Numbered from the stretch's first letter, positions 2,154 through 52,300 are shown. The stretch: DNA of 64,000 nucleotides from a bacterium (GCA_963675295.2 CAXXKJ010000002.1:2976001-3040000); one strand, 5' to 3'. A program made the numbers and translations. The notes: generated by a model not told the origin, from the letters alone.

Positions 2154-3436
2154 TATTCCTTCACTCCGGATGTGGAGAAGAATGTCTGCAGGATGTTGTC
2201 CGTGTGAGCACGCCACGCGCCCCAGGAGTGGCCTTCGTGCCACACCTGCCACGTCACGTTATTGCCCTTGCCTTCCAGGGCGTCCTTCAGCGCGGTACTC
2301 GACTGGTAGATGGATGCTTCGTAGGTGCCCGCGTCAAGGTAATACACCACTTCGGTTGGATCGTCCGCGGCGATATCGTTGATCAGTTCGTTGTTGTTGA
2401 CGTACACCGCAGAAGAATGCCCGCCGGCATAACCGAAAACGTCCGGGTGATTGTGCGCGAAGTAAACCGATGTCAGTCCACCCAGCGAACAGCCCATCAC
2501 CGCGCGGGAAGCGGGTTGTGGATCAGTCGGGTAGGTCGCATCGATATACGGCACCAGCTCGTTGACAAACATCCACATGAACGGTTCGTTGAGCCAGTAC
2601 TCTGTCATCCGGTCAATCGGATTGACGAACACGGCGATGACCGGGTTGATCAGCTCCGCGTCGATCAGGTTATCGAGAGTGTTCTTCATGCTGGCGAGGC
2701 TGACATATTCGCCACCGTCATGGACATATATCGCCGGATACGCGCCCTCTGGATCATACCCCGCCGGGAGGTAGACCTTGACACCGCGTGTGTTGTTCAA
2801 CGAATCGCTGGTGAACTGGAAGGTTTCAAGGGTACCGTGCGGGATATCCGGGTTGTAGTCGATCTCCCACGGATCGACGTACTCCGGCATCGCGAGTTCG
2901 GAATTCGGACCGCAGCCGCCGGTGACTTGTCGCGGATTGCGCGGATCGAGGATCCAGTTGTTGCCCGGTGTGACAAACTTGTAGTCGAGACGAGCGTCCT
3001 GCTCGAATGTACGTTCGCGGTAAAAAAGGTTGGTGCCGGCGATCAGTGTCATCGGGTCGTCGCTCGGAGTCCACTCATTATGATCGCCCGGAACCTGCAC
3101 CGCACTGTAGCTGGAAGTGAACAGGTAAACACATTGTTTTTCGACGGTCAACGGGAACCCGTAGTCCTCGGAATCCTCCAGCAGAGTGATGAAAGAATCA
3201 GCCATCGCCTGCCGTTCGTTCTGTGGCGCGGCCATGATATCCGCGAGGAACTGATCCCAATCCGGCGGTTCGTCCAGCTCGGACGTTGGCTCGCTCCGGC
3301 CATACCCGATGCGGGATTGGTCCGTCTTTGTATCGGATTCCGATTTGGTCACGTGCGACTGATCGTCACAGCCCACGCTCAGCAGCGCAATGCCCATCAA
3401 GGACAGCATCAGTACGTTGAAACGGTGTTTCAGCAC
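2153..3436 (-). CDS. Fes/CE1-like alpha/beta-hydrolase (putative esterase) lipoprotein with CBM48-like N-domain
   Basis: Lipobox LSVGC; VPGDHNEW...DYKF...ILDPRNP (CBM48-like); VYLPAGY, HDG, nucleophile motif GCSLGG, C-terminal EGHSW. Confidence 0.85.
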   Translation of the reverse strand: MLKHRFNVLMLSLMGIALLSVGCDDQSHVTKSESDTKTDQSRIGYGRSEPTSELDEPPDWDQFLADIMAAPQNERQAMADSFITLLEDSEDYGFPLTVEKQCVYLFTSSYSAVQVPGDHNEWTPSDDPMTLIAGTNLFYRERTFEQDARLDYKFVTPGNNWILDPRNPRQVTGGCGPNSELAMPEYVDPWEIDYNPDIPHGTLETFQFTSDSLNNTRGVKVYLPAGYDPEGAYPAIYVHDGGEYVSLASMKNTLDNLIDAELINPVIAVFVNPIDRMTEYWLNEPFMWMFVNELVPYIDATYPTDPQPASRAVMGCSLGGLTSVYFAHNHPDVFGYAGGHSSAVYVNNNELINDIAADDPTEVVYYLDAGTYEASIYQSSTALKDALEGKGNNVTWQVWHEGHSWGAWRAHTDNILQTFFSTSGVKE

Positions 3437-3439: not shown

Positions 3440-6400
3440 TTACTCCACAAACAAAATGTCGTACACGTTGGGGTCCGACTCATCCGCCCCCGATCCGGCC
3501 CAGCGTCCACCCTCGGGTGTCACCGCACGGAACTCGCCAATTCCGCCGCCGCCGTGATCGTCTTGGCCACCGACCAACACCGCGATTTTCCAGTGTTCCG
3601 GGTGGGTGCCGAGGTAATCGAGCGGGATGGCGAAGCTGACCGTTTTCGCTTTTGTGTCACCGAGACGATACGCCGGATCGCTGGGCATGTGCGCGGCGAT
3701 GATGCCGCCCTCGGCATCCTCGATTTCGATCCCGCCACCGACGTAAATGAAACGGTCGGCCGCATACTCGCCGGGCAATTCGTAGTTGCTGTTGCGGCGA
3801 ACGTCGGTGCGTAACGCCCCACCCAGATTGCCGCTTCGGATCGTGATGGTCGCAAAGGTCAGCTGGAAGCCATACTCCGGACGCCAGCCCGGATCGCTGA
3901 GATCACGGAACGTGAGGCTGAAGTAGGCCAGGTCATTGTCCGCGCGCATGGTGAAATGCGTCAAATCGAGAATGCCGGGCAGGAACGCCGGATTGGTCGG
4001 GTAGCCGTAAGTCTTACCCTCGACCACGCCGGTGTCGTCGTGCTCAGGATCATCAACGTCCACGATCACCGGCGCTTTTTCGCTCCACGCCTTGATCGTC
4101 TCGTTCGGAATCAATGGGTAGTCCGGCGGTTGCAGCGACGCAATTCCCTCAACGGAACGCGGCTGCAGCAACGGTTCGTCATCCTCGGCGTCAATCAGCA
4201 ACGGGATCGGAACCGACTGGAACGCCGGCAGCATCGGCCCGGCGGGGATGCGCAGCTCGGTGCCATTGTTCTTGCGATCCAGCACCAGTGTCCAGCGCGG
4301 AACATCTTTTGACAGCTCGCCGGATGGATCGGAGATGGTGTCCATCGTATCGAGAATCGAGCGGAACGGCTTGATCCGAATCGGGTCCGAAATCGAATCC
4401 GGCATCAACGCGGTGAAGGTGAAGCGGATGGTCTGCTCGTCAAAGCTGCTGGCAAGCCGGACCGGCTGGCCGTTCATCCAGACAACCGCGTCCACGTCGC
4501 CCAGTTCACGCGGGTAACGTGGGTCAAACTCCCACGCGCCCGGATCGTCATAGATCGGTTTCACGCCGAGGTAGTCCTGGTACAACGTGCGCAGGAACTC
4601 GGCCAGTGACCAGGCTTGCGAGATGGTTCCGCTGGTCTTCGGTTCGGCTGCCCCTTCACGCGGAAGCGCGTCAAGATTCTCGCTCAACGTACCGACACAA
4701 CCCCGGTCGAGAATCTGGTGGACTTCGTCCCGCGCGACCGCGACACCGTGGCGCGACGCTGACTTGTACGGCCCGCTGAGCCACGTCCAGACAATGCCCA
4801 TGTGATACGCGGCATCCTTCGGGTAGAAGATCGTCTCGTGATACGGGTGGAACTCCGAATCGGTCTGCGCGAGACTGGCGACACCCCAACGGTAGACGAG
4901 GCTGTCGCGCATGGTGCTAACGATGGCAGTGCTTTCTTCGTTGGTGATCAGTGGATTTTCACTGGTCAACGGTACGGTCACCGCCCACGCCTGGTTCGGA
5001 CGAACCTTGAGGTCGGGGGAACCGTCCTCGTTGAGGTGATCGACGAGGCCGAGACCATCCTCACGGATGAACCGTTCGCGGAAACTGGCGATCAACTGGT
5101 CACGTTGCGGCTGGTAGTTGACCTTGTGCCCGGTGTATGACAGCATCCACTCGGCGGCCTGAAGTTGCGCCAGCCACAGCGCCTGGATCTCCACCGCCCG
5201 GTTGCCGCGCGGCGACCACGCGCCGTTAACACCTTTCGCGTCCATCCACGTGTCGGCGTCGCCATGAGTCAGCAGACCGTGCTCGTCGACTCGGTGCGTC
5301 ATCGCTCCCTGCACCGTTTTCTCGACCACTCCGCCCGGCTGGCCAAACTCGGTCCACAGGGTACGGTCGCCGGAATAGAGGCCGTACTCGTACAGTTCGC
5401 GCACGAACCACGGGGTGCCATCCGCCGTATTGTAGATGATATCCTCGCCACGCGCGCGGTTCGGCACCTTACCGAAGTCGGGAGACGCCATATCGGTATT
5501 CTGCCACTGCGCGAAACGGCGGAAGATCTGCTCGGCGGCGTCGAATTTGCCCAGCACCAGCGCCGCACCGGGCAGGCTGATGAAGGTGTCACGCGCCCAG
5601 CCTTCGTTGAACCACGGCAGACCCGCCCAGATCAGGCTGTTGTCCTCGGCGAACAGCCCGGCCATGCTAAGTTTCGCCCAGTTGACGGCCCGGTTGATAC
5701 GTTCGTCGTCGCAACGGAAATACGAGCGGTTCAGCTCGTTGAGCAGCCAGTCGCGGCGATCCTGTTGCTGCGCATACTCACTCCGCCGGATCTCGACCCA
5801 GCGGTCGCCGGCGAGTTCGGCCGATTCGCCCCAGGTGAAGGTGAGGTCGAAACCGGGTTCGTTAAACATCGCGCCGTGGATCGCCTTGCCGAGGTGTGTG
5901 GCGAACGGTCCTTTCGCCTCGCGGTTGACGGTCCGCATCTCCGGCGCATTGAACCAGCGCTTGCTGCCAGCGGCCATGAAGACGCTGTCCGTGCCCGCGA
6001 TGCCGAGGTAGTATTGCATCCCGCGGGTCTTGTTCTCGTAAGCTTTCTCAATGGTCAGTGACGACGGGAAGACGAAGAACAACCCGACCTGCGTGTCTTC
6101 GGATTCCCCTTCCCCGCTGCCCGGCACGAACGGTTCGCCGTTCATCGAACAGTTGAAACGGAGGTCATCGCGGTCAACGCCGACCGGCGACACGCGCAGC
6201 GTTACCCCATCCCGCCAGCGGAAAATGACCTCGTGCGGCTTAACGCGAACTTGCGCCCTGGCACGGTCTTTCGGGACACCGTCGATCACCAGGATCCAGT
6301 CGTCAAGCAGCTTGTGATTGCCGACATGCAGCCCCATCCAGCCATCGCTGGCGACGGTTGCCGTGGTGCCGTAATAGAACGACGTACCGGTGCCGCTGAA

Positions 6401-6568
6401 CAGGTAGGGCCTGCCGCTACCAGGCGCGAGATCAATCGCGAGGGAATCGAGATACGACTCGGTGTAGCGGGGCGCGTCGTCTGGCAGCATGGTGGCGCCC
6501 TCCGTGGCGATGGTGAGCACGAGGATGGTCAGAATCGGGATGAAGATCGCTCGTGAACGATGGCGCAT
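3440..6568 (-). CDS. Exported amylo-alpha-1,6-glucosidase (glycogen-debranching, GH133-like) with C-terminal glucodextranase DOMON-like domain
   Basis: AGLPWFNEGWARDTFISLPG, YNTADGTPWF, TWMDAK, RPNQ, YHMGIVWTWL and SQAWS motifs. The C-terminus has DDTG...YPT...LDL...GFQ...GGQD. The ORF track starts at 6616; ATG 6568 precedes a signal-peptide-like stretch. Confidence 0.85.
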   Translation of the reverse strand: MRHRSRAIFIPILTILVLTIATEGATMLPDDAPRYTESYLDSLAIDLAPGSGRPYLFSGTGTSFYYGTTATVASDGWMGLHVGNHKLLDDWILVIDGVPKDRARAQVRVKPHEVIFRWRDGVTLRVSPVGVDRDDLRFNCSMNGEPFVPGSGEGESEDTQVGLFFVFPSSLTIEKAYENKTRGMQYYLGIAGTDSVFMAAGSKRWFNAPEMRTVNREAKGPFATHLGKAIHGAMFNEPGFDLTFTWGESAELAGDRWVEIRRSEYAQQQDRRDWLLNELNRSYFRCDDERINRAVNWAKLSMAGLFAEDNSLIWAGLPWFNEGWARDTFISLPGAALVLGKFDAAEQIFRRFAQWQNTDMASPDFGKVPNRARGEDIIYNTADGTPWFVRELYEYGLYSGDRTLWTEFGQPGGVVEKTVQGAMTHRVDEHGLLTHGDADTWMDAKGVNGAWSPRGNRAVEIQALWLAQLQAAEWMLSYTGHKVNYQPQRDQLIASFRERFIREDGLGLVDHLNEDGSPDLKVRPNQAWAVTVPLTSENPLITNEESTAIVSTMRDSLVYRWGVASLAQTDSEFHPYHETIFYPKDAAYHMGIVWTWLSGPYKSASRHGVAVARDEVHQILDRGCVGTLSENLDALPREGAAEPKTSGTISQAWSLAEFLRTLYQDYLGVKPIYDDPGAWEFDPRYPRELGDVDAVVWMNGQPVRLASSFDEQTIRFTFTALMPDSISDPIRIKPFRSILDTMDTISDPSGELSKDVPRWTLVLDRKNNGTELRIPAGPMLPAFQSVPIPLLIDAEDDEPLLQPRSVEGIASLQPPDYPLIPNETIKAWSEKAPVIVDVDDPEHDDTGVVEGKTYGYPTNPAFLPGILDLTHFTMRADNDLAYFSLTFRDLSDPGWRPEYGFQLTFATITIRSGNLGGALRTDVRRNSNYELPGEYAADRFIYVGGGIEIEDAEGGIIAAHMPSDPAYRLGDTKAKTVSFAIPLDYLGTHPEHWKIAVLVGGQDDHGGGGIGEFRAVTPEGGRWAGSGADESDPNVYDILFVE

Positions 6569-6653
6569 GGCGTTCCCTTGGGTCGGGGCTGGGATTCTGG
6601 TCAGTCTATGTGTCAACTTCAGTGTGAATCAGCTTGTGTATGTCAGCTCCTGT

Positions 6654-6771: not shown

Positions 6772-6776
6772 CCACG

Positions 6777-10887: not shown

Positions 10888-12234
10888 TTATTGCAGCTGG
10901 AAGACACGGAAACCGTAACCCGTAACCGTGAACTCGCCATCCAGCGGTGACGAATCAATCACATCCACGAAGTCGCCCGCACCCAGGCTCGGCGAACGTT
11001 CGACCTTCGCGTCTTCTGCTCCGAAGTTGATCGCGACCAGCATCCGTTCGTCGTCGTGAATCCGTTGGAACAACAGGACGTTTTCGTCTTCGTACGGCAA
11101 CCTCACAGTAGATCCCTCGCGGAGTACGGCGTGCTGCGTACGCAACGCCAACAACTCACGGTAGAAGGCTTCGATGTCCGTGTTTCCGGCCTGCCAGTCG
11201 ATCGGTTCGTCTTCGAACAGGCTCGGCTTGTGCGTTTCGCCGATCTCCTGCCCGGTGTACAGCAGGGGTATGCCGGGCAGCGTATAAATCAATGCGCCGT
11301 AAGGCCGCAGATTTGGCCAGCCGAAGGCTTCGGCGGCACGGGGTTCATCGTGATTCTCGATGAACCGCATCGGCTGCTTCCCCGGCGGATAGATCCTGTG
11401 CTTCTGTTCGACTGCGGACCACAGGCTGTCGGTGCTGATCCCGCCGTGTGCGTGGTCTTTCATCCGGTGGTACAGATTCCAGTCGTACGCGGCGTTGAAG
11501 CCGGTGTCCAGAATCCACGGGTCTTCCCATTCCGCCAGCATGAACACATTCGGTTTACGCTCGCGAAGCTGTGGAATCGCCTGTTCCCAGAAATCGGCGG
11601 GCACCATGCCGGCTACGTCGCAACGGTACCCATCGACATCCGCCTCCTCGATCCAGTGGACGAGTGAGCCGATCAGGTAATTCCTCGCACCTTCGCTATC
11701 GTGATCCCAGTCGGTGATGTCTGACCAGTCGGCGACTTCGCGTGTGAAGTTGCCGTTTTCATCCTTCATGTACCAGTCGGGGTGTTCGCTCATCAGGTGA
11801 TGATCATTGGCGCTGTGATTCATCACGACGTCGAGAATGACCGCCATATCGCGTTCGTGGGCTTCCTTGACCAGCGTTTTCAGATCGTCCAGCGTGCCAT
11901 ATTCATCGCCAATTTTGTAATAATCCTGGACCGAATAAGGGCTTCCGGCGGTGCCCTTGCGACCTTCGACTCCGACCGGGAAGATCGGCATCAGCCACAG
12001 GGTTTTGACGCCGAGATTCTGCAACCGGTCCAGATCCGTGGTCAACGCAGCGAGGGTGCCGTCGTCCGAATACGCTCTCAGGTAGACCTCATACAATGGC
12101 TGGCCCATGAACCAGTCCTCCGCGTCGCTGACGTCCGTGGCGGGTGGCGTCTCCTGTTTCGCGCAGCCGAAGCTGATGATGCCGATGGCGATAGCGAACA
12201 GAGTCGCGCGAAGAATCGAATTTCGCAGAGTCAT
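10888..12234 (-). CDS. GH13 alpha-amylase-family lipoprotein
   Basis: Lipobox ISFGC; GSPYSVQDY, DVVMNH, DGYRCDVAG, LAEWE, FIENHDE. Start refined to ATG 12234. Confidence 0.92.
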   Translation of the reverse strand: MTLRNSILRATLFAIAIGIISFGCAKQETPPATDVSDAEDWFMGQPLYEVYLRAYSDDGTLAALTTDLDRLQNLGVKTLWLMPIFPVGVEGRKGTAGSPYSVQDYYKIGDEYGTLDDLKTLVKEAHERDMAVILDVVMNHSANDHHLMSEHPDWYMKDENGNFTREVADWSDITDWDHDSEGARNYLIGSLVHWIEEADVDGYRCDVAGMVPADFWEQAIPQLRERKPNVFMLAEWEDPWILDTGFNAAYDWNLYHRMKDHAHGGISTDSLWSAVEQKHRIYPPGKQPMRFIENHDEPRAAEAFGWPNLRPYGALIYTLPGIPLLYTGQEIGETHKPSLFEDEPIDWQAGNTDIEAFYRELLALRTQHAVLREGSTVRLPYEDENVLLFQRIHDDERMLVAINFGAEDAKVERSPSLGAGDFVDVIDSSPLDGEFTVTGYGFRVFQLQ

Positions 12235-12355
12235 CGTGAATTCCTCACAAGCCACGGAATCCCGTCCCGCGCCCAACGTGACGAGGTGATGGTACAATGT
12301 ACAGGTATGTCCCAGTGCGGTAATCGAAGAAATGGTACCGCACTCTGCTGTCTGT

Positions 12356-12391
12356 AAAAAGGGAGGGAAGACGGCGTGTCCTCCCTCCCCC
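12356..12391 (-). terminator. Intrinsic terminator after the 12431-13924 gene
   Basis: On the minus strand: GGGAGGGAGGAC-ACGCC-GTCTTCCCTCCC-TTTTT. Confidence 0.8.
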
Positions 12392-12430
12392 ATCGTCCTG
12401 CAAACGAACCGGCGCGAGCCGGATCGACGC

Positions 12431-13924
12431 TTACTTCATCAGCATCATCTTCTTCGTCTGGGTCATGCCAAGGGCTTCCACACGATAGAAGTAGACACCA
12501 CTGGACAGCCCGGCCATGTCGAGGTTCAACTCGAACTTGCCGGCGCCAAGCGTGCCCATATCACGGTTGATGACTTCCTGGCCGGTAACGTTGAAGACAC
12601 GCAGAGTGGTCTTGCCCGGAGCCGGAAGCGTGAACGCAATCGTGGTGTTCGGGTTGAACGGATTCGGGTAGTTCTGCTCCAGCGCGAACTCAGTCGGAAC
12701 CGTCGCGGTCGGAACTTCACGGACGCTCAGGTAATCGTCGTAAAGGCTGCCGTTCTCACCGAACTGATCTTCGACGGTCCAGGTCGGCTGGTCAGCCGGC
12801 AGTTCGCGGAAGCGGTTTTCACCCTGTCCGGACTCATTGTCCCAGCCATGGCAGCCGTACTTGTACGTAAAGTTGATGGGAGTACCTTCGGGGAACTCAA
12901 TGGTGCAGGTAAAGATCGAGTCACCAGCGACGAGGTCCGGTGCGATACCATCATCGTACAGGTTGTAGTTACCCGGATCGCCCTGAGTCCAGTTCCAGTT
13001 GTTGTCCCATGGGCCGGTGATGATGAAGAATTCGATGCTGTCGATCTCGGCGTCCACCAACTCCGGGATGCCCACGTCCGCGTGCTTCTTGATCGCCGGA
13101 CGGCCATCAAGGTAGTAGGTGACGGTCAAATCCTGGTTGATCCCACCCGGGTTGTCTGCCCAGTAGACCGGATCAAGGACGATTTCCTTGTAGCCGTTGT
13201 TGTTGTTATCCGGTTCGTCACCGGTCGCGACGAGAATACGGTCACCACCCGGCGGTTCTTCCCAGATAACCGGATCACCCTGGTTGTTGCCCTCATCGAT
13301 GAGGAACTTGTACGGCAGGTCGGTGTTGGTTTCCAGGCTTTCGAACGTAATCAGCGCTGCGTAAATATCCTCACCACCACCCTGCAACGTCAGCTGCGTG
13401 TACCCGCCCCAGTTGCCGAGGGCTTCGTGGCCACCGCGAATGATCACACCGTCTTCCGCCGGGTCGAACGCTTCGGTCTGAATCGCGACCGTCATGTCGA
13501 CCTGGAAGATGATTTCGTACGGATAGGTCGGGTTCGCGGAGTTCTGGTCGTTGAAGAACAGAATGTCCAGAACCGTGTCATCGTCCGGGGCGGTCATCGC
13601 GCGGTCGGCGATGCTTTCCCAGGTCAGGTTCGCAAAGTCTCCGCCGTTGGCGATTACGAATTTGAAGTTGTACTCGGTACCGGCTTCAAGCTCGACAGTC
13701 GTTTCGTACACCAAGTCTTCGTCTGGATCCAGCATACGGTCCGAGGGGTTACCCCAACCGTTCATGGAACCGTTCAGGCCGACGGAATCTGCATCGGCGT
13801 CAAAATTACCCAGCTGATCCTGGATGGACATGTCAACGCGGAAGGTCACGTTGACGGCTGACGCCATCCCGGCGATCAACAACAGGGCAATCGCGATCAA
13901 ACCAACTTTCTGCAACGATCGCAT
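12431..13924 (-). CDS. Non-catalytic secreted protein with three tandem CBM20-like/Ig domains and a T9SS type-A-like CTD
   Basis: Signal peptide; repeated VTFRVDM / IIFQVDM / VTYYLDG...Y(K)F/YKY units; LYDDG..D..AGD motif; CTD EQNYPNPFNP...KKMMLMK. No catalytic motif seen. Confidence 0.75.
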   Translation of the reverse strand: MRSLQKVGLIAIALLLIAGMASAVNVTFRVDMSIQDQLGNFDADADSVGLNGSMNGWGNPSDRMLDPDEDLVYETTVELEAGTEYNFKFVIANGGDFANLTWESIADRAMTAPDDDTVLDILFFNDQNSANPTYPYEIIFQVDMTVAIQTEAFDPAEDGVIIRGGHEALGNWGGYTQLTLQGGGEDIYAALITFESLETNTDLPYKFLIDEGNNQGDPVIWEEPPGGDRILVATGDEPDNNNNGYKEIVLDPVYWADNPGGINQDLTVTYYLDGRPAIKKHADVGIPELVDAEIDSIEFFIITGPWDNNWNWTQGDPGNYNLYDDGIAPDLVAGDSIFTCTIEFPEGTPINFTYKYGCHGWDNESGQGENRFRELPADQPTWTVEDQFGENGSLYDDYLSVREVPTATVPTEFALEQNYPNPFNPNTTIAFTLPAPGKTTLRVFNVTGQEVINRDMGTLGAGKFELNLDMAGLSSGVYFYRVEALGMTQTKKMMLMK

Positions 13925-13939
13925 GTTTACTCTCCTTTG

Positions 13940-13967
13940 TGTAACGTTTGCTATCTAACGTTTGCAA
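13940..13967. promoter_or_regulatory. Tandem LacI-family-like operators (TAACGTTTGC x2)
   Basis: tgTAACGTTTGCtatcTAACGTTTGCaa lies immediately upstream of the RBS of the 13924 gene and matches the GnAAnCGnTTnC pattern. Confidence 0.55.
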
Positions 13968-14001
13968 GTATGCCTTGCGATTTTACTTCCAGGGGGCCAA
14001 C

Positions 14002-15072
14002 TCAGAATTTAAGGTTCAACGAGTACTTGTGCACGTTTCCCAATCGATCAAAGCTCTCGAAAGCGTAGTCAACACCCAGTCCGAACATGCCACTGATGTT
14101 GAACATCAACCCGCCGCCGCAGGTGAATCCGCCGCCGTTATCCGGCTCGAACAGGTTGAACTCTTCATCGTACGTCCCGGGCCGCATCGCCCGCAGGCCG
14201 GCCCGCAGGAAGTACATCTCCTGGAAACCATATTCCATGCCGACATTGTACGATTCGGTGTTGTCGTTCGGCACAACCCAGTCCGCGGCGTACGTTAGCC
14301 GGTGGGATTGGGATTGAATGAATTCGCCAGACACGCCGAGCCGCAGCGTCAGCGGCAGCTTCCACTGGTCGGTATCGTATTCGGCGGTGACGAGTTCGTT
14401 GTTGCCTTCGCGACTGGCGTCCGGGTCATGGTAAACCAGCAGGTCCTTGCCCGACATCTGCATCTTCGACCCGAAGTTGCTGATGTTCATGCCGAGCCGC
14501 ATATCCTTGAACGGCGTCACGAACAGGGTTCCGATGTCGAACGCGTACCCGCTCGCTTTTTCGTTCCAGATTTTCTGGTGGATGTACTTGACCGACCCGC
14601 CGATGCTGAACTTGTCATAGAAGCGGTAGGCGTAGTGCCCGGCAATGGCGAGGTCGTAGCTGTTGAAGAACAGGCCGGTACCGTCCTGCTGCAGCACGGT
14701 GGTCTGTTCCATTTCGCCAACGTTCAGCAGAGTCGTGGACAAACCCACGGTCCCCGCCGCTCCCATTGGAAAAACCGCGCCGATGTATTCGAAGTTCATG
14801 TCGGCGAGCCACGTGCTGTGGACCAGCAACATTTCCATCTGGTTCAGGTTGCCGAGTCCGGCCGGGTTCCAGTACAGCGCGTTGGCGTCGTCCGCAACCG
14901 CAACGAACGCGCCGCCCATCGCCTGCGGACGTGTGCCAATGCCGATGGTGAGGAACGGTGCGGCGGTTGTGCCGACCTTGTTCTGGGCGTACACAGTTTC
15001 AGGCGCGATCAAGCCGGCAAGCAGGACCACCGCCAACAAAGCCGTAGCCAGGGTGCGTACTGTCGTCGTCAT
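14002..15072 (-). CDS. PorV/PorQ-family (UPF0164, FadL-like) outer-membrane beta-barrel
   Basis: GTTAAPFLTIGIGTRPQAMGGAFVA...ALYWNPAGL signature; C-terminal F. Start ATG 15072 after GAGGGA. Confidence 0.88.
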   Translation of the reverse strand: MTTTVRTLATALLAVVLLAGLIAPETVYAQNKVGTTAAPFLTIGIGTRPQAMGGAFVAVADDANALYWNPAGLGNLNQMEMLLVHSTWLADMNFEYIGAVFPMGAAGTVGLSTTLLNVGEMEQTTVLQQDGTGLFFNSYDLAIAGHYAYRFYDKFSIGGSVKYIHQKIWNEKASGYAFDIGTLFVTPFKDMRLGMNISNFGSKMQMSGKDLLVYHDPDASREGNNELVTAEYDTDQWKLPLTLRLGVSGEFIQSQSHRLTYAADWVVPNDNTESYNVGMEYGFQEMYFLRAGLRAMRPGTYDEEFNLFEPDNGGGFTCGGGLMFNISGMFGLGVDYAFESFDRLGNVHKYSLNLKF

Positions 15073-15083
15073 GCGTTGCTCCC

Positions 15084-18000
15084 TCACTTGATCACCGCGA
15101 ATTTGCCAACGTGTTCGCCCCATGGCGAATCAACGTGGTATACGTAAATGCCGTACGCGACATCCAGTCCGTCCATGTTGCGCAGATCCCAGTTCTCACT
15201 GCCGTCAAAGATCGACTCGTTGTGCTCGATCGTATCAACCAGCTCACCGCGCACGGTGTAAATGCGAATGGTGCATTTTCTCGGCAGATGGTTGAAGGTG
15301 ATGCGGCGCTCCCCGCGTCCTGAGGAATACGGGTTGGACGGTTCCTGCACGTTCGCCGCGAGGTACGGATTCGGGTACACCTTGATCCGGTCGAGATCAA
15401 TTTCATCCCGATCGACCTTGGCCGATTCGGAATCGAAGTTGAATACGTCGTCCGTTGCGATCGGGTTGTACTGGCTGAGGTTGAGGACGTCTCCCCCACG
15501 CGGCGGGTAGATATGGCCGAGACCCCGGTCCTCGTTAACCAGTTCCTGGAACAGGATGGCCCAGGTTGCCACCGTATCAATGTCGCCGTCGTTGTCCGCA
15601 TCGTACAGGTCGAGCAGCGAAATCTCACTCTTGTTGTTGATCTTGCCGTCGTTCGTCTCGCCACCTTCCGGCGCCGTGTTGTCCGCGAACAGGATCAGCG
15701 GTTCGTTACCAAGGGTAAGATTCTCGACCTTGAAATAGATCGGCATCGCCGTCCAGTTGGCGAAGAATCCCCTGTGGTATTCCAGGGATGTGTCTACCAC
15801 CTCATTGTAGAAGGTGACACGGTAGTCGGACGCTGTCGAATCCCCGACGAAATTGTCGACCAGGAAACTGATCGGGCTCATGGTGAACGTCAGCATCGAA
15901 TCTTCATCCACGGCGTTGTACAGATCCCAGCCGGACTGCGCAGAGATGAACCGTGCTGGACGGCGGGGTAGCAGCATGAACGCGCGCAATCCTTCGAAAA
16001 TTGGAGTTTCGACGACGTCGAAGAAGCTCTCGACATTCAACAGACCGTCCCCATTGCCGTACGTCGAGTCGAGGAACGTGTCGTACATGTCGAAAACGCG
16101 TTTCGAATTGAACCGGTCAGCCAGGGTCCCGTTTCTGATGACGGTTTTGTAGCCGCCCCGGTCCCCGTAACGCGTGATTTTGTAGCGTGTGGCCCGCCGG
16201 AGTGAATCCGGATCGCTGAAGGTGAACTCATAATCCTTGTTGTCCAGCACCAGCGTCGGGTCAACCACTTCCACGTGAATGAACGCGTCCGCCGATCCTG
16301 CAAGCGGTTCCGCGCTACCTTCGACCGGAGCCTTGTAACCGTTGGCTGTCGGGCTTGGGGTCACGACGACCGTGTTCTGGTCGGTCTTCACTTCGCCGGT
16401 TTCATCAACGAAGATGTACTTGGAAGTTTCCGCCGGAAACACGCCGGTGGAATCGTTGCCGAAGTCGTAGGACGTGACAGCGTAGTAGTACTGTTGCCCG
16501 TTTTCGACCGTTGTATCTGTCCACACGTGCTGTAACCCGGTATCCTCACCGAGGTAGAACGACACGCCGATGTCACCGGCGGAGAAGAATCCGGCCTTTC
16601 CGTCCTTGAGATCGAATTGTTCAATCGGCTTGTGGAATACTTTGCGGCCGAGACCGTCCGTGATGACGTAATTCTCGAGGAAGCCCGGGTCGGTCGCACG
16701 GTAGATCTTGTAGCCTTCGAAGTCGAACTTGTCTTCGACGGGCTGGGACGGATCTTCCGAAAACTCGGCCTTGTCGTCCCAGTACAGGGTGACGAACCCA
16801 TCCCCCGCCACCGCGGTCACCGTCGGCTTCTCTGGTGGGCGGGCGAAGTTGTAGTTGCTGTCGTAAATCTGCTGAACGGTGCGCTTGTTGAGGAACACGT
16901 CCACCGAGTCTTCACCGAAGAACAGCGCGGTGGAGAAACGTTGCGTATTGCCGGACGGGAGCGGGAAATACCCGGAACCGTACATGAAGTCACCATCCAT
17001 CGCCCGGCCGGGGACAACGTCGATGTTACCGGGTTTCATCCGGTTCCACATGTCGTTGTCGTTGCGCAACCTCAGAGCGGAGGCGGACTCGATATCGAAG
17101 TAGTCAAACGAGGTGAGGCCGATCTGGTCGGACTCATCGATGTCCGTCTTGTCGAAGTGCGGTTCACCGTTGTCCGGCTGGCCGTTGCCTTCGCCAAAAT
17201 CCCTGGTGCCTGCCTGGCCGTCAAAGCCGACGTCGTCGGTTCTCGGGTCCCAGTCGCCGTCGTTGTCGATCCCGTCGTTACGGGCTTCGTCAATCATCAG
17301 GTCGTTCAGCCCCGCGCCAGTGAAGTAGTCGATGTAGGCGTAGCCAACGTGGTCGAGGCGCTGGTCAACCGAATCTGACGGCGGCACATAACGTTCGTCG
17401 ATCAACCCGTTGAAGTTGTCGTCGAAGTTGTTGTAGCCATCTTCAATCAGCAGGCTGTCCGCGTACAGCGTGCGGGTCGTGCCGCGGAAATCGTACTCGA
17501 GCACGCCGGACTCAGGCATCGTGACAACGGTACGTTCGTAGGTGTTGTAGTCGATCAACACCAGTTCCGAGTTGGGATTGCGGTGAATCCCATCCTCTGT
17601 CCATTCACGCAATTGCGCTTCGGTGAGAATCGGAGCGTTTCCCGTGTAGTCGCCGTCGTTGTCGATGCCGTCGAATTCGTTGCCCGGAGATTCGAGGAAT
17701 GCGTATCCGATCCAGCCGACATCATGATCATCGTTTACCGGCACCCAGCCGTAGGTTCGTGAGGGGCCGTTGTTTTCATCGTAGGAATAGGTGATGTCGT
17801 TGTCCGGATCGAAGAACGCGAGATCGTCGTCTGTATCCTCGCGGCCACCGGCCAGTGTGCCGACAACCATGCCGAAAACGACCTTATCGTAGTTGTAGTC
17901 ACTGATGTTGGCGATCTCGTACTGCCAGACGATAGCGTCTTCCGCGAGGAAGTGCGACCACTGGAAGCCGCGCGCGGCAACGCGAATCCCCATCCCGCCA

Positions 18001-18776
18001 CGTGTGGTGTCATCCGCGGTCGGGTAATAGATCATTTCGATCGGGTTGTTCTCTTCATCACGCACGATCTCACCGGTTTCCGGATCTTTAAGGTATTCCA
18101 TCCGGAATTCGCGGTCGGCGTTATCATCCATCTGCCAGTAGGATTCCTGGTCAGCGTTGGTGACATCCTTGCCGAAGTAGCCGTTCCATTTCCCCGCCCA
18201 GCCCGGATCGTTCGTGTCCATCTCCCAGAGAATGTCGCGAGCGTCGCTAAATTGTTTATCAGGCCAGAAAACGGGCCACGTTTCGGGTTGGTGGCTCATC
18301 GCAACGAGGCCGGCCGCGCCCGGATCGTCGGAGGCTTGATCCGGCGGGGCACCAAATCCCGGCAGCGCTTCAAACCCCCAGTGGACGCCGCTCGGGCTGA
18401 CATCGTCGGTTCCACGTGGCGACCGGCAGGTGATCACGGAGTGAATCACATCGTTGGACGGGTGGACATACTCGACTCCGACGCAGATCGTCACGTCACC
18501 GACATACTCGTTACCCGTGCCCAACGGCCATTCGCCGGAGATCTCACTGATATTCCCAACGAGACCGTAGTTATAGAAAATCGTCCGGACCTTGTTGCCG
18601 CTATGGATGTTCTCATAGCTGTAAAGCCGATTGCCCTTGTACTGCGACGGCACCTGCGCCTGGCTCACCGGCAGCATCGCCAGGACAAACAACAGCAGCA
18701 ATCCGGTCACGAGAATCTTGTTCATCAATGTTATCCTCAGCTGAATCCGAGGGATGCCCATGTCTGGTCCATTCAC
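15084..18776 (-). CDS. Large secreted protein with DxDxDG Ca-binding-like repeats, FN3-like domain and variant T9SS-like CTD
   Basis: Signal peptide from M at 18725; DGIDNDGD twice plus DDNFNGLIDE; FN3-like VTLYWD...FEGYKIYR...YYYAVTSYD; C-terminal IKVYPNPY...KFAVIK. Start is 18776 (GTG) or 18725 (ATG). Confidence 0.8.
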   Translation of the reverse strand: MNGPDMGIPRIQLRITLMNKILVTGLLLLFVLAMLPVSQAQVPSQYKGNRLYSYENIHSGNKVRTIFYNYGLVGNISEISGEWPLGTGNEYVGDVTICVGVEYVHPSNDVIHSVITCRSPRGTDDVSPSGVHWGFEALPGFGAPPDQASDDPGAAGLVAMSHQPETWPVFWPDKQFSDARDILWEMDTNDPGWAGKWNGYFGKDVTNADQESYWQMDDNADREFRMEYLKDPETGEIVRDEENNPIEMIYYPTADDTTRGGMGIRVAARGFQWSHFLAEDAIVWQYEIANISDYNYDKVVFGMVVGTLAGGREDTDDDLAFFDPDNDITYSYDENNGPSRTYGWVPVNDDHDVGWIGYAFLESPGNEFDGIDNDGDYTGNAPILTEAQLREWTEDGIHRNPNSELVLIDYNTYERTVVTMPESGVLEYDFRGTTRTLYADSLLIEDGYNNFDDNFNGLIDERYVPPSDSVDQRLDHVGYAYIDYFTGAGLNDLMIDEARNDGIDNDGDWDPRTDDVGFDGQAGTRDFGEGNGQPDNGEPHFDKTDIDESDQIGLTSFDYFDIESASALRLRNDNDMWNRMKPGNIDVVPGRAMDGDFMYGSGYFPLPSGNTQRFSTALFFGEDSVDVFLNKRTVQQIYDSNYNFARPPEKPTVTAVAGDGFVTLYWDDKAEFSEDPSQPVEDKFDFEGYKIYRATDPGFLENYVITDGLGRKVFHKPIEQFDLKDGKAGFFSAGDIGVSFYLGEDTGLQHVWTDTTVENGQQYYYAVTSYDFGNDSTGVFPAETSKYIFVDETGEVKTDQNTVVVTPSPTANGYKAPVEGSAEPLAGSADAFIHVEVVDPTLVLDNKDYEFTFSDPDSLRRATRYKITRYGDRGGYKTVIRNGTLADRFNSKRVFDMYDTFLDSTYGNGDGLLNVESFFDVVETPIFEGLRAFMLLPRRPARFISAQSGWDLYNAVDEDSMLTFTMSPISFLVDNFVGDSTASDYRVTFYNEVVDTSLEYHRGFFANWTAMPIYFKVENLTLGNEPLILFADNTAPEGGETNDGKINNKSEISLLDLYDADNDGDIDTVATWAILFQELVNEDRGLGHIYPPRGGDVLNLSQYNPIATDDVFNFDSESAKVDRDEIDLDRIKVYPNPYLAANVQEPSNPYSSGRGERRITFNHLPRKCTIRIYTVRGELVDTIEHNESIFDGSENWDLRNMDGLDVAYGIYVYHVDSPWGEHVGKFAVIK

Positions 18777-18787
18777 GGTTACCTCCC

Positions 18788-21637
18788 TCAGAAGGAAAAC
18801 TTGAAGCCAATACGCACTTCACGCGGCCGGCTGTAGTACTGCGGCCGGTTGTACACCTCGTCCAGCGTGTTGATGGACGGTTCTTCCGACGGCAGGTTCT
18901 GGTAATATTCCTGCGTGTAGGTGGCCCGTCCGGTGTCGGTGAACACGTCGTTTTCGTTTAGGCGGTCGAACAGGTTGCGCACCATCAGCTCGACGCTGGC
19001 CGTGATGCCGGTTCCCTCGAACCACGGCAGGTAGTAGAACGCGTTCAGGTCAACGTTGAAGTAGTCCGGCTTGCGGGCGTCGTTCTCGAACGAGATCTCA
19101 ACGTCCGCTTCTGTGGAGAGATTCTTTGAGGTGTACGGCAAGCCCGAACCATAGTAAGCGATCAGCGACGCACCCCAGATCTTCGGCTGGAAGTAGTTGA
19201 CCGTCGCATTGATCGTGTGACGGCGGTCCCAGTCCAGCGGCAGCAGTTGCTTGATCGGTTGCTGCTCGGCCTTCTGCGCGTTGAACGCATCCTGCGGATC
19301 GGACGCGTTACCCTCCGCGATCTGGTACGTGTAGTTCAACTGGCCGGAGAAACCGTTCGCGTAGCGCTTGTCCAGCGACAGAACGATGCCCTTAACCTCA
19401 CCGAAATCCCGGTTGGTGTACTGGATGTACTTGGTGCCGGCGTCGTAGGTGCTGACAATCCGGTCGGAGCTGACCAGGTTACGAATATCGCGCTGGTACA
19501 GGCTCAGGCCCATCGACATGTCGTCGGTGATTCCCTGCTGCAGGCCAAACTCGTAGGAGATCGTCTTCTCGGCTTCGAGATCCGGGTTACCCATCAAGGT
19601 GCCGGTGCTCGAATTCGGATCCAGCTCCCACTCGGGGTTGGTGTAGAGGTATTCATAGCGCGGACGCTGGAAAAAATGTCCGTACGCGAAGTGCAGCACG
19701 CCGGTCGGGCTGATCGGGTATGCGACACCCAGTCGCGGTGACACCTGGTACTTTGCCGATGCGTCTTTCCACCAGTACGTGTGCCGTGTCGTCAACGGGT
19801 CGTTGGCGTGCGATTCAAGCAGCGGCGAATAGATGTTCGGATCGGCCGGGTCCGCGAGGATCTTGGCGTCCGGATCGAAGTAGTCAAGACGGACACCCGC
19901 GTTCACGATGAAGTTCTTGAATTCGATCTTGTCCTGTACGTACACCGCGCCTTCGAACGGATTGTTGAAGTACTCATCGTGATCGAGGGCTGACGGATCG
20001 CGGATGAAGAAGTCTGAGGACGTTTCATCTTTCGGGTCGAGACTGGACAGCGTAAACTGGTCGTAGTAAATCGTGTTGAAGTTCGTGCTGACGCCGGCGA
20101 CAACGTAGTGAACGTTGTTCACCTGCCAGTTCAGCTTTGTAGTGCCGTTATGCGAGTCGGTGAAACGGCGGAAGTGTTCGTTGTTTGTACCGCCCATCTT
20201 CAGGGTCACGCCCGGGCTGAGGTCGGAGAAGAATGAGCTGACGTAACGATCATCGAATGGATCTTCAAAGGTGTAGTGGTAATACTCCTTGAAGGTATTT
20301 GAATACCCGGTCTCGATAAACGCTCGCTGGCTTAGCGCCCACGTGGCACGCAGCATGTTGGTCCGGCCACGGGAGAAGCGGTGTAGTACGCCTTCCGGGA
20401 CGTACCGCCAGTCGTTATCGTAGTCCTTGTAGTTCCGGTCATCCCAGAGGCTTGAATAGTTCAGCTTGATGTTGTCGGTCAGCTGGTAGGACAGCTTTCC
20501 GTATAAATACAAGTTGCGGTCGGGATTCATCTCGACTGGTTCATCATCACCAAAGATCGGGATCACACCGACCGCGTCATACACTTCCTGCGCCCGTGTG
20601 GTATCGTAGTCATCTGGAAAAGCACTCGGGAACTCACGGAAGATCTCGCCGATGTCCAGATCGGGGCGGACAACCGACCCGTTGTCTGTCACCGTATAGT
20701 GTTCCAACCCCCAGCGACGCTGGCCGTAATACCAGCCGGAGTTGTCGTCCATGCGCCCGTTGATGAAGAACGTCAGCTTGTCGTTTGTATAGGGCACCGG
20801 CCCGGAGAGGCTGCCTTCGTAGTCCTGGATGGCCATCGGGCTGATATCATCGATGTTGTAGAACACATCGTCGTTCGTCGAAAGGTAGTCGCCGAAGCGT
20901 GTGATAACCTGACCGCTGTAACTGCTGCCCCCTTCACGGGTGATCAGGTTGACAACGCCGGACATCGCCTGGCCATACTCGGCGTTGAACGTTCCGGAGA
21001 TGACCTGCAGCTCCTGCACTGCACCCTGGTTCAGCGTGGTCGCCTGGGAGTTGTCGTATGCATCCTGCACCGGGATGCCATCGACCAGGTACACGACCTC
21101 GCCCGACCGTCCCCCGCGGAAGTGTCCGTCCACCACCCCGGCCTGCAGGTTGACCGCTTCCTGCACCCGCGTGATCGGCATCGCCTCCAGGTCTTCCGCA
21201 CCGACTGATGCGGTCGAGAACGTCCGGTCCACCTCGATGATCGGCTTCTCCGCCACGATCGTCACTTCCTCGCCCATGATCGCGGACGGGTCCAGCTCGA
21301 CGTTCAACGTGGTGGTCTTGTCGACGTTCACCTCAACACCGGTGATCGTCTTCGTCGCATACCCCAGCGACGAGACGACAATCTCGTACGTATCCGGCAT
21401 CAGGTTGATGATGAAGTACTGGCCGTCCAGGTCGGTTGCCGCACCACGGGGCGTGCCTTGTACCAGCACGTTTGCCGCCGCGATCGGTTCGCCGGTGGAT
21501 CCGTCCCGCACCACACCCATGATCTTGCCGGTTGTCCCGGCGAGGGCGGTTAAAGGCTGCAGAAAGATGGCGAACAGGAGTGAAGCAAAGATCAGATACA
21601 ACGGAACAGAACAGGATCGAAGGTTCATGAGCGTCAC
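18788..21637 (-). CDS. TonB-dependent receptor with N-terminal carboxypeptidase-regulatory-like domain
   Basis: GTTGKIMG..GAATDLDG; plug RGGRSGEVVYLVDG and ISGTFNAEYG; SPRLG, GNPDLEAEKT; terminal F. Confidence 0.93.
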   Translation of the reverse strand: MTLMNLRSCSVPLYLIFASLLFAIFLQPLTALAGTTGKIMGVVRDGSTGEPIAAANVLVQGTPRGAATDLDGQYFIINLMPDTYEIVVSSLGYATKTITGVEVNVDKTTTLNVELDPSAIMGEEVTIVAEKPIIEVDRTFSTASVGAEDLEAMPITRVQEAVNLQAGVVDGHFRGGRSGEVVYLVDGIPVQDAYDNSQATTLNQGAVQELQVISGTFNAEYGQAMSGVVNLITREGGSSYSGQVITRFGDYLSTNDDVFYNIDDISPMAIQDYEGSLSGPVPYTNDKLTFFINGRMDDNSGWYYGQRRWGLEHYTVTDNGSVVRPDLDIGEIFREFPSAFPDDYDTTRAQEVYDAVGVIPIFGDDEPVEMNPDRNLYLYGKLSYQLTDNIKLNYSSLWDDRNYKDYDNDWRYVPEGVLHRFSRGRTNMLRATWALSQRAFIETGYSNTFKEYYHYTFEDPFDDRYVSSFFSDLSPGVTLKMGGTNNEHFRRFTDSHNGTTKLNWQVNNVHYVVAGVSTNFNTIYYDQFTLSSLDPKDETSSDFFIRDPSALDHDEYFNNPFEGAVYVQDKIEFKNFIVNAGVRLDYFDPDAKILADPADPNIYSPLLESHANDPLTTRHTYWWKDASAKYQVSPRLGVAYPISPTGVLHFAYGHFFQRPRYEYLYTNPEWELDPNSSTGTLMGNPDLEAEKTISYEFGLQQGITDDMSMGLSLYQRDIRNLVSSDRIVSTYDAGTKYIQYTNRDFGEVKGIVLSLDKRYANGFSGQLNYTYQIAEGNASDPQDAFNAQKAEQQPIKQLLPLDWDRRHTINATVNYFQPKIWGASLIAYYGSGLPYTSKNLSTEADVEISFENDARKPDYFNVDLNAFYYLPWFEGTGITASVELMVRNLFDRLNENDVFTDTGRATYTQEYYQNLPSEEPSINTLDEVYNRPQYYSRPREVRIGFKFSF

Positions 21638-22222
21638 CTTGGATAGTCCGTCTACAACCGCATCTTAACCCTGCAAATCGTACGGATGCCCTCAACACGT
21701 AAACGTGCCGCCGGGATACGGCCTTCTCCCGCGCGATTGTACAGGGTGCTGGTTGACGTAATCGGTTTGGGCACGGTGGGCAGGTCGTGGTCGTCGCTGA
21801 TCGTGCTTGTACGTGCCCGGGATACCGCCGGTCCCGCGGTCGGCGGTGCGGTGTTTGTTGCGGGTGAATGGCGACGTGCTGACTCTGAAACTCGCTTTCC
21901 GTTACCCGGCCGTCTCCAACGTTCCTGTATCACACGCCCAGTGATCACCCAAACGGCCAAGTGATATAAAAGTATTGTGTTCTTTTGGTCCTATGCAACG
22001 CTTGGCTCGCATTTTCACATAGTAACTGGTCTCTTCTGTGAGGAAATGCGAGTAAACAATGAAGTTTGCTCTGCAAGATACGAAAAACACGAAACAGATT
22101 CTCGGAGCTGAACACGCATGTTTCGTAAAGAATGAACTTGCAGGAGTCGAGCTGTGTCCGGTAGCTGATGTTTTTGTCATACTGAGCCCGCCGCATCCTG
22201 CTGTTTTCAGGTGTCCTGAGAG

Positions 22223-22255
22223 AAAAAGCGCTCCCCCATTTGCTGGAGGAGCGCT
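22223..22255 (-). terminator. Intrinsic terminator after the 22288 lipoprotein gene
   Basis: AGCGCTCCTCCA-GCAAA-TGGGGGAGCGCT-TTTT on the minus strand. Confidence 0.75.
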
Positions 22256-22287
22256 GTGTATTGCTCAGGTTGCGTACTGCGCAGCAA

Positions 22288-24027
<1,740 letters not shown>

Positions 24028-49073: not shown

Positions 49074-49892
49074 TCAGGCAAATGCCGCGAGCACCCCCCA
49101 CAACGCCAGCGGCAACATTGACGCCAGCGTGATCATGGTATCCGCGCCGCGCCAGTCAGAGAGCCCGTACCGAGTTCGCACCGCTCGCGGATCATACCCA
49201 CGCAGGACCAGCGTTTCCGCGAGATCGTCCGCCCGGCGTAATGCATTCGCCAGCAACGGGATAAACAACGGAATCCACGCCTTCACCCGTGACAGTACAC
49301 CCTTGCCTGGATCCCAGCCACGCGCACGCAGGGCTTTGCGCAGTGTCAGCGCCTCTTCGTACAGCGTCGGCACGAATCGCAATGTCATCCCTAGTAGCAG
49401 GGAGAACGATCCGACCGGAATGTTCAGCCGTGCCAGCGGGGACAGCAGCACATCCATCGCGCGGATCGCTTCCAGCGCCGTAACCGCCAGCGACAAGGTG
49501 ACACCGAGCAGCACCAGTGCCGACAACCGTCCCGCGAGTAATCCACCGTTGATCAATCCTTCTCGGGTCAGGTTCCACTCCAAACCGGGGACAGTCCACA
49601 AAATGTGTCCGGGCGTGGTGAACGCGTGCAGCAGCAGCGTCAACCCCAGCATCCACGCAACCGCGACCAGTCCCAGCGCCAGGCGGGCCAATGGTGGTTT
49701 GCCGGCGTACACGAAGCCGCCGATGAACACCGCGACCAGCGCCAGCCCCCACCCAAGCGGCAGCATCACCGTCTGGATGATGAGCAGCAGACCCACGAGC
49801 AAACGGGCTCGCGGGTCGAAACGTTTCAGCGGAGCGGTCGCGTTGTCCCACGCGCCAGACTCTCCGGCCGATATGGCGGCAGCCTCACTCAC
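49074..49892 (-). CDS. ecfT: Energy-coupling factor transporter T component
   Basis: DPRARL, LRFVP.L.EE...A.RARG, R.A..LAE.L.LRGY (two XRX motifs). GTG start at 49892 overlaps the upstream stop. Confidence 0.85.
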   Translation of the reverse strand: MSEAAAISAGESGAWDNATAPLKRFDPRARLLVGLLLIIQTVMLPLGWGLALVAVFIGGFVYAGKPPLARLALGLVAVAWMLGLTLLLHAFTTPGHILWTVPGLEWNLTREGLINGGLLAGRLSALVLLGVTLSLAVTALEAIRAMDVLLSPLARLNIPVGSFSLLLGMTLRFVPTLYEEALTLRKALRARGWDPGKGVLSRVKAWIPLFIPLLANALRRADDLAETLVLRGYDPRAVRTRYGLSDWRGADTMITLASMLPLALWGVLAAFA

Positions 49893-52230: not shown

Positions 52231-52300
52231 GCCGCGCAAGCTCCTCGCTGATGGTTCAACGTGAGTGTTCTGAGGATGCACCGGGCGGCCGTGGTACGAG

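Follow-up and report, generated by a model that had tools for sequence, protein, structure and literature searches.

A receptor, a large putative T9SS surface protein and a PorV/PorQ-family barrel form a conserved cassette that may act as a glycan-uptake module

A 64,000-nt stretch of bacterial DNA (GCA_963675295.2 CAXXKJ010000002.1:2976001-3040000), hereafter the window, carries three adjoining genes that code for a TonB-dependent receptor (TBDR), a secreted protein of about 1200 amino acids that we call BIG, and a predicted outer-membrane barrel of the PorV/PorQ family. On balance, and with modest confidence, we read this trio as one outer-membrane module for glycan uptake, which would head a starch/glycogen locus here and loci for other glycans elsewhere, and which probably stands in for the SusC/SusD pair. 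The genes had been listed in a preliminary description of the window as three minus-strand genes for a TBDR, a protein of ∼1.2 kaa and a PorV/FadL-like barrel, and both the coordinates and the domain matches agree with it. They open an unbroken minus-strand row that runs for ∼21.6 kb down to the start of the window, with alpha-glucan genes after the trio; the starch-active genes announced downstream were identified as CBM20, glycoside hydrolase (GH) family 13, GH13 with a C-terminal domain (CTD), GDE_C and GH57 genes (Table 1). The 11-nt gaps described earlier hold by arithmetic if GTG 18776 is taken as the start of BIG (TBDR stop at 18788) and the internal ATG 15072 as that of the barrel (BIG stop at 15084), the first ATG of the barrel open reading frame (ORF) being at 15123. 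A Shine-Dalgarno-like motif is found at both possible starts of BIG. We prefer ATG 18725 to GTG 18776, because BIG homologues align from there and because this ATG directly precedes the predicted signal peptide MNKILVTGLLLLFVLAMLPVSQA; the TBDR–BIG gap would then be 62 nt.

To place the trio in a wider context, one genome per species was scanned, which gave 550 relatives in 595 matched stretches; the 80 best loci were retained, each with up to 10 kb of flank, and trio members were called using phmmer with the window proteins against all ORFs of these loci. Whether the three genes are conserved together had been set beforehand as a test. A same-strand TBDR of the trio subfamily lay directly upstream of BIG in all 66 loci that extend at least 1.5 kb beyond it on that side, a barrel adjoined BIG in 64 of the 67 loci with room for one (downstream in 57 and between TBDR and BIG in seven), and the full trio was found in 44/44 loci with enough flank. 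Recurring in every one of these 44 loci, the arrangement is far beyond chance. With the first possible start taken for each ORF and the seven loci of other gene order omitted, the TBDR–BIG junction had a median length of 16 nt (≤30 nt in 51/63) and the BIG–barrel junction one of 11 nt (≤30 nt in 47/60), a tight spacing that suggests co-translation.

Complete trios spanned at least six phylum labels, the record titles naming Ignavibacteriota, Calditrichota, Fidelibacterota (Marinimicrobia), Stahliibacteriota (WOR-3), Kryptoniota, Cloacimonadota and Bacteroidota-labelled metagenome-assembled genomes (MAGs). Single MAGs labelled Acidobacteriota, Alphaproteobacteria and Verrucomicrobia also hold the trio; these labels were not trusted. 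The cassette had been proposed as a feature of lineages of the Fibrobacterota–Chlorobiota–Bacteroidota group outside Bacteroidota; several such phyla do carry it, but it is not confined to them, as it also occurs in Ignavibacteria and in Bacteroidota-labelled MAGs. Three MAGs have two cassettes each (loci L007/L011, L043/L070 and L058/L080), and tandem cassettes, each with its own barrel, are present at L069:1724-15268 and L079:1-23678.

The receptor has a signal peptide and matched, above the Pfam cut-offs, CarboxypepD_reg (the SusC-like N-terminal domain), Plug (PF07715) and TonB_dep_Rec_b-barrel (PF00593), its barrel being of the 22-strand type. Against the SusC/RagA model TIGR04056 it reached 70.9 bits, the cut-off being 368.25, and the match was confined to the N-terminal domain; this domain is also the sole part shared with the other TBDR of the window. 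By profile comparison, the receptor thus falls into a distinct TBDR subfamily outside the SusC family. The lack of a SusD-like lipoprotein noted in the preliminary description was borne out for the 41 window ORFs scanned with Pfam (11 at E ≤ 0.01 and 30 at E ≤ 1e-5), none of which matched a SusD-type family. For the related loci, 403 flank ORFs were clustered and 38 of 39 cluster representatives together with 142 of 147 singletons were scanned; no SusD was found among them. The gene right after the receptor was BIG or the barrel in all 66 loci.

The barrel matched NF033709, the PorV/PorQ family model, with 219 bits (cut-off 90) over profile positions 1-326 of 326, and stayed under the cut-off of each equivalog model (PorQ, 101/220; PorV2, 88/325; PorV, 82/250). 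All 49 cassette barrels behaved in the same way, scoring above NF033709 and below every ortholog cut-off, with PorQ the best of these. Pfam matches were to UPF0164, PorV and Toluene_X, with none to PorP_SprF, and the only solved relative was Flavobacterium johnsoniae PorV (6h3i_F, E 3.8e-4). These profile matches identify the barrel as a cassette-specific paralogue of the PorV/PorQ family. Substrate CTDs are reportedly docked on PorV in PDB entries 8gl6-8gln.

The C terminus of BIG reads IKVYPNPY...GKFAVIK, so that the IKVYPNPY...KFAVIK ending picked out earlier is indeed present in the translation. An insert of ∼15 residues (E..P....GRGER) after YPNPY is specific to the family, with E30, G38, R39 and G40 invariant. 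When curated models were run on 20 BIG members (E ≤ 0.1), Por_Secre_tail matched 1/20, CHU_C 4/20 (best E 0.008) and FlgD_ig 4/20, all weakly. In hhalign comparisons the tail aligned with the type-A CTDs of neighbouring cargo proteins (probability 96.7%, E 3e-10, 65 columns), the curated PF18962 and TIGR04183 models mostly missing it, and with the tail of a PorZ-like protein encoded in the window (98.3%, E 2e-14, 92 columns, 37% identity); ordinary type-A tails matched the same PorZ-like tail more weakly (88%, E 3e-6). On this profile evidence, the BIG tail appears to be a divergent type-A CTD that is closest to the PorZ tail of the window. Outside the tail, the N-terminal 800 residues of BIG are without relation to PorZ. 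The presence of the PorZ-like gene in the window means that a type IX secretion system (T9SS) is present in the organism; no PorQ-like gene adjoins this gene (49885-52368).

Two candidate identities for the pair were tried and rejected. A type-B CTD served by a PorP/SprF barrel, the precedent invoked in the preliminary description, was ruled out, since CHU_C matched only the four tails given above and the barrel had no PorP_SprF match; the tail instead appears to be of a divergent type-A, PorZ-like kind, and the barrel is of the PorV/PorQ family. The housekeeping PorV was ruled out too, in keeping with the earlier view that the barrel is not the single PorV of the cell, because it scores below the PorV and PorQ equivalog cut-offs, is multi-copy in some genomes and, in two of three tests described below, did not form a same-MAG clade. 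With the tail not of type B and the barrel not of the PorP/SprF kind, the known case to compare with becomes that of PorZ, which PorQ keeps at the surface. The parts of PMC5562754 that were consulted describe PorZ and PorU of Porphyromonas as anchored at the surface by PorQ and PorV, and passages of a review (PMC10202324) state that the PorZ CTD is retained and binds PorQ, and suggest that cognate PorV-like barrels may shield CTDs from cleavage.

BIG itself had no Pfam family at either E ≤ 0.01 or E ≤ 0.1. Of 7999 candidates from a word-indexed search, at least 5957 were homologues, every one annotated as hypothetical and almost none with a precomputed Pfam domain; where organisms were named, the labels were Calditrichaeota, KSB1, Cloacimonetes, WOR-3, Gemmatimonadetes and Bacteroidetes. 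When 1.84 billion representatives were searched exhaustively, the number of clusters at 50% identity was 4790 for E ≤ 1e-3, 2104 for 1e-10 and 532 for 1e-30. A cultured carrier is Ignavibacterium album (IALB_0487). The signal peptide is of type I, and no lipobox was found in 20 aligned N-termini. One conserved stretch spans residues 40-800 (mean column identity 0.46-0.73 over 49 sequences), with many Asp, Glu and Trp residues invariant within the first 600, and the tail forms another. Of the calcium-motif and fibronectin type III (FN3) features described for this protein earlier, the former stood, in that Asp-rich DNDGDWD-type repeats are nearly invariant in the N-terminal region of the alignment; the latter was reduced to a segment whose profile weakly matched 3mpc_A, an Fn3-like protein of solved structure (E 0.013), with no Pfam fn3 match. 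That weak match apart, a whole-protein profile and four sub-profiles gave only noise against solved structures. The region of residues ∼800-1100 is variable across the 49 sequences (mean column identity 0.30-0.43) and much less so within GH94-type and GH26-type cassettes (0.58-0.79), making it a candidate specificity module. In 6 of 17 distant or long BIG relatives, Reg_prop beta-propeller repeats occur in the C-terminal part, which hints that the BIG family and PorZ may share more than the tail; the six (P0291, P0299, P0300, P0313, P0324 and P0287) are 1360-1590 aa long. Other relatives carry an Ig-like module of alpha-glucan water dikinase (starch-related) or a lectin-type Laminin_G_3 module.

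The different sets of carbohydrate-active enzymes (CAZymes) that had been anticipated beside the trio were found. Alpha-glucan sets comprised GH13, GH77, GH31, GH97 and glycogen phosphorylase; a GH66 dextranase flanked L007; GH94 with PF10091/CBM30 flanked L011, L013, L016 and L038; GH26, GH130, a GH2 beta-mannosidase, CBM9 and an epimerase flanked L043, L046, L057, L065 and L066, in all five of which the order is TBDR-barrel-BIG; and GH29/GH43/GH51/GH88 flanked L047. The mannan-type set (L043:16915-18465, L043:21581-22768, L046:19367-21994) spans Marinimicrobia and Ignavibacteria MAGs, with one sulfatase case. Flank regulators were of LacI, TrmB, AraC and hybrid-kinase type, and inner-membrane sugar transporters of ABC, SSF and MFS type. 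The glycan context therefore differs between loci while the N-terminal 800 residues of BIG stay constant. A homologue of the window's fourth gene, with a T9SS type-A tail, follows the barrel in many loci (a cluster of 46); 35 of the 38 members scanned had Por_Secre_tail and 24 had CBM_20, and the idea that the CBM20-like matches in the flanks are mere tail matches was dropped after this domain scan. From its domains, the fourth gene would encode a non-catalytic starch-binding surface protein in a SusE/F-like role. A SurA-like peptidyl-prolyl isomerase/chaperone gene (SurA_N and Rotamase; a cluster of 29) is a frequent neighbour, before the TBDR or after the cassette (e.g. L035:∼5000-7100, L046:13523-15067, L050, L067 and L070), and a GDSL/tetratricopeptide repeat (TPR) gene is often near cassettes (23); neither is present in the row of the window.

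The three proteins were next compared by trees built from 48 complete trios and the window. Patristic distances were correlated for every pair (TBDR–BIG, r 0.86; BIG–barrel, r 0.81; TBDR–barrel, r 0.85) and 0/999 permutations gave values as high, so that the co-phylogeny looked for was observed. In the three two-cassette MAGs, each cassette grouped in all three trees with its own type from other organisms and not with its genome-mate. On an IQ-TREE barrel tree, the approximately unbiased (AU) test rejected a same-MAG barrel clade for L007/L011 (p 3.9e-6) and for L043/L070 (p 1.2e-31), and the GH94-type barrels and the GH26-type barrels were each set apart from the rest by a branch with 100% support. 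This paralogue pattern is a stronger argument than the distance correlations.

From these data a mechanism can be proposed in which the receptor would import oligosaccharides with TonB energy, and BIG would be exported through Sec followed by the T9SS. We infer that BIG is kept at the surface by an uncleaved PorZ-like CTD bound to the co-encoded PorQ/PorV-like barrel, as in PorZ–PorQ and PorU–PorV. BIG would thereby be tethered beside the receptor, with its constant N-terminal two thirds working with the receptor and its variable region suited to the glycan class, and would capture substrate or hand it over in a SusD-like role. In the locus of the window, the fourth gene product would be SusE/F-like and the CTD-bearing GH13 SusG-like, so that starch could be bound and cut at the surface.

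In the strongest competitor, the barrel would do no more than secrete or shuttle BIG, its dedicated cargo, as PorP/SprF does for type B and PorV for type A cargo; BIG would then be an independent adhesin, scaffold or binder of insoluble glycans that makes no contact with the receptor, and the gene linkage would reflect co-regulation. Cargo genes and those of their cognate barrels are usually clustered, according to the parts of PMC10202324 consulted, BIG does have a T9SS tail, and contact between the receptor and BIG is itself a proposal. The receptor, however, equals the barrel in the tightness of its coupling to BIG (66/66; median gap 16 nt), co-diversification is stronger for receptor and BIG (r 0.86) than for barrel and BIG (r 0.81), and the barrel sits between receptor and BIG in seven loci. 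We regard this explanation as rather unlikely, though it deserves to be taken seriously. Less probable again is that BIG belongs to a new family of surface enzymes, for example with a glycan-processing or debranching activity, and is tethered next to the importer. The invariant Asp, Glu and Trp residues, numerous in its first 600 positions, would suit an enzyme, and its place outside any known family leaves room for catalysis, but most of the invariant acids lie within the calcium-type DxDxDG-like repeats, and there was no match to Pfam CAZyme families or to solved enzymes. The same conserved region is moreover found beside alpha-glucan, dextran, beta-glucan/cellobiose, mannan and mixed plant-glycan enzymes, whereas a glycosidase domain should vary with its substrate.

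The remaining two explanations carry very little weight. A FadL-like substrate channel, with BIG and receptor as unrelated neighbours, has in its favour a weak Toluene_X/FadL Pfam match (E 2e-7, 37 residues) and is highly improbable in view of the full-length match to the PorV/PorQ family (219 bits; 49/49 barrels), of PorV as nearest solved relative and of a strict pairing with a CTD-bearing protein that fits a CTD-binding barrel. That the trio belongs to the housekeeping equipment for type IX secretion or attachment, as its family likeness to PorQ/PorZ might suggest, is the least credible, given two or more cassettes in some genomes (tandem ones included), their embedding in regulated glycan loci, a separate full-length PorZ-like gene in the window and barrels under the ortholog cut-offs.

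Several points weigh against the uptake module that we favour, which is known here from gene sequences alone. The loci compared are the 80 that scored best out of 550, so that the trio may not hold in more distant members of the family, and many of the 4790 BIG representatives match over mature residues ∼450-816 only (numbered from Gln24). An adjacent barrel was missing, despite room for it, in L003, L030 and L061; in L030 and L061, BIG is followed directly by another TBDR, probably that of the next cassette. The tail comparison used a single PorZ sequence. Tree congruence is in part expected from shared ancestry and linkage, which inflate the correlations; a same-MAG barrel clade was not rejected for L058/L080 (p 0.062); and the same-MAG pairs, chosen by MAG identity, were tested after the FastTree tree had been inspected. 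No carbohydrate-binding module (CBM) was recognizable in BIG by Pfam, and BIG may not be the glycan binder, because recognizable CBMs sit in the fourth gene instead. For want of such a module, the model is least secure where it casts BIG as a "substrate-binding lid".

A fuller proposal, put forward tentatively and as possible rather than probable, combines these elements. It would be a glycan importer of new architecture spanning phyla, in which a PorZ/PorQ-derived pair was recruited to a new TBDR subfamily and in which the ∼1200-aa, barrel-tethered and T9SS-displayed BIG, with an N-terminal fold not seen before, replaces the SusD of Bacteroidia. The three proteins would form one stable complex whose specificity is set by the variable region, and the cassette would have been duplicated and exchanged as a unit among Ignavibacteria, Calditrichota, Marinimicrobia, Cloacimonadota and WOR-3.

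Table 1. Features of the trio, its locus and the PorZ-like gene (positions counted from the first nucleotide of the window)
Feature	Position	Strand	Description
TBDR	18788..21637	-	949 aa
BIG (large secreted protein)	15084..18725	-	1213 aa from ATG 18725; 1230 aa from GTG 18776
BIG, Sec signal peptide	18657..18725	-	MNKILVTGLLLLFVLAMLPVSQA; type I
BIG, FN3-like segment, residues 633-800	16326..16829	-	by eye in alignment and weak match to 3mpc_A
BIG, variable region, residues 801-1100	15426..16325	-	from column identity
BIG, CTD	15087..15431	-	assigned as divergent type-A, PorZ-like T9SS sorting domain
PorV/PorQ-family barrel	14002..15072	-	356 aa from ATG 15072; ORF to 15123, 373 aa
Fourth gene, CBM20 surface protein	12431..13924	-	Pfam 2 x CBM_20 and Por_Secre_tail (type-A CTD)
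GH13	10888..12393	-	Pfam/NCBIfam
GH13 with CBM48-like domain and type-A CTD, 1350 aa	6906..10958	-	Pfam/NCBIfam
GDE_C (amylo-alpha-1,6-glucosidase) with Glucodextran_C	3440..6616	-	Pfam/NCBIfam
Esterase	2153..3436	-	Pfam/NCBIfam
GH57 with CBM48, runs off window	3..2252	-	Pfam/NCBIfam
Upstream boundary region of trio	21638..22255	-	terminator-like hairpin and leader
PorZ-like T9SS component	49885..52368	-	NF052228, 211 bits full length (cut-off 260); PorZ_N_b_propeller and Reg_prop repeats

The trio heads a unit of its own, as a strong terminator-like hairpin and a leader split it from an upstream TBDR-lipoprotein pair. The hairpin resembles an intrinsic terminator (12-bp stem, 22227-22255) and closes the preceding unit; the leader, ∼590 nt of non-coding sequence between hairpin and trio TBDR, holds a 17-nt inverted repeat at 22006-22052 (82% complementary, 13-nt spacer) that may be an operator. 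No regulator gene adjoins the trio within the window, while many related loci have LacI or TrmB. A scan of 12000-27500 with Rfam returned no family, and sites in a sigma-70 promoter scan were no commoner than in shuffles. The upstream pair (22288-26979, minus strand) consists of an unrelated receptor, TBDR2, of the TonB-Xanth-Caul type (24142-26979) followed by a 595-aa lipoprotein (lipobox FAGC) with a weak SusE-like match at its N terminus (E 0.003). Within the row of the trio, the 1350-aa GH13, with its TTG start as listed (10958), would share ∼70 nt with the end of the GH13 gene before it (10888); the true start is probably downstream, because the signal peptide begins further in (MMKNMTGRMAMLTLTF...). 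Elsewhere in the window, a surface-glycan cluster at 34706-39242 (an alginate-export-like porin, an O-antigen ligase-like protein (Wzy_C) and a GT4 glycosyltransferase) could bear on the lipopolysaccharide anchoring of type-A T9SS cargo.

No prior description of the trio or of BIG was found in the full-text literature, a search whose coverage leaves out most subscription journals; within the same coverage, no mention was found of the locus tags IALB_0486-0488 and MROS_0760. The genome paper of Melioribacter roseus, in the part seen (PMC3534657), lists "SusC, SusD, SusE (Mros0761-0759)" in a starch "sus operon" (Mros0764-0758). The layout of this operon equals that of the alpha-glucan cassettes described here; these genes may be true Sus homologues or a trio labelled by position, and M. 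roseus was absent by name from the best 120 matches to a Melioribacteraceae BIG, most of which are nameless. In the sections seen of the Caldithrix abyssi genome paper, TonB receptors are mentioned for B12 and thiamine only. What appears to be new is an unnamed protein family and the re-use of a type IX tether; TonB-dependent glycan uptake with a surface partner is of a known kind.

SusC/SusD loci are the standard marker for predicting polysaccharide use, and locus-finding tools key on SusD. If the trio is a working equivalent, glycan-degrading capacity would be under-called in Ignavibacteria, Calditrichota, Marinimicrobia, Cloacimonadota, WOR-3 and their relatives, which are abundant in sediment, ocean and bioreactor, and the trio could serve as a simple genomic marker for the glycan loci of those lineages. 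It would also represent a second use of type IX secretion, with PorQ/PorZ-like pairs as general tethers for nutrient-uptake machines, and would assign a role to a family of thousands of proteins now listed as "hypothetical", for which there is neither a Pfam model nor a solved relative.

Among known systems, the core of the SusC/SusD polysaccharide utilization locus is the closest in plan: in both, a regulated glycan locus begins with a TBDR whose N-terminal domain is of the CarboxypepD_reg type, the gene of a surface protein comes next, a non-catalytic CBM protein and a surface GH13 follow, and each glycan class has its own cassette type. The trio receptor, however, is outside the SusC family (70.9 versus 368.25 bits), a SusD-like TPR lipoprotein was not found in the ORFs scanned, the partner is a non-lipoprotein of ∼1200 aa with a T9SS tail, and a third gene, that of the barrel, is obligatory. 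The pairing of a PorV/PorQ-family barrel with a secreted protein that has a PorZ-like CTD is shared with PorQ–PorZ and PorV–PorU, as are, with PorZ, the Reg_prop propellers of some BIG relatives. Unlike PorQ–PorZ, the trio is co-encoded, multi-copy in some genomes and linked to a TBDR and CAZymes; its barrel falls below the PorQ cut-off (101 versus 220), the N-terminal 800 residues of BIG are unrelated to PorZ and the CTD has an insert. With SprB/SprF, the type-B case, it has in common the logic of a dedicated adjoining barrel for one surface-kept T9SS cargo with an uncleaved tail, as that system is described in parts of PMC10202324, but the trio barrel has no PorP_SprF match and CHU_C was matched in 4/20 BIG tails (best E 0.008). 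By analogy only, the arrangement also recalls the Slam-lipoprotein-TBDR clusters of Proteobacteria (TbpB/TbpA type), in which an importer, a surface partner and a dedicated barrel that displays the partner occur together; 120 of 185 Slam-lipoprotein clusters also had a TonB receptor, according to the part of PMC5449769 consulted. The families of the two systems are unrelated, Slam having a DUF560 barrel and a lipoprotein partner, its substrates are metals and haem and its export route is another one, whereas the trio would join importer, surface partner and barrel for the uptake of glycans.

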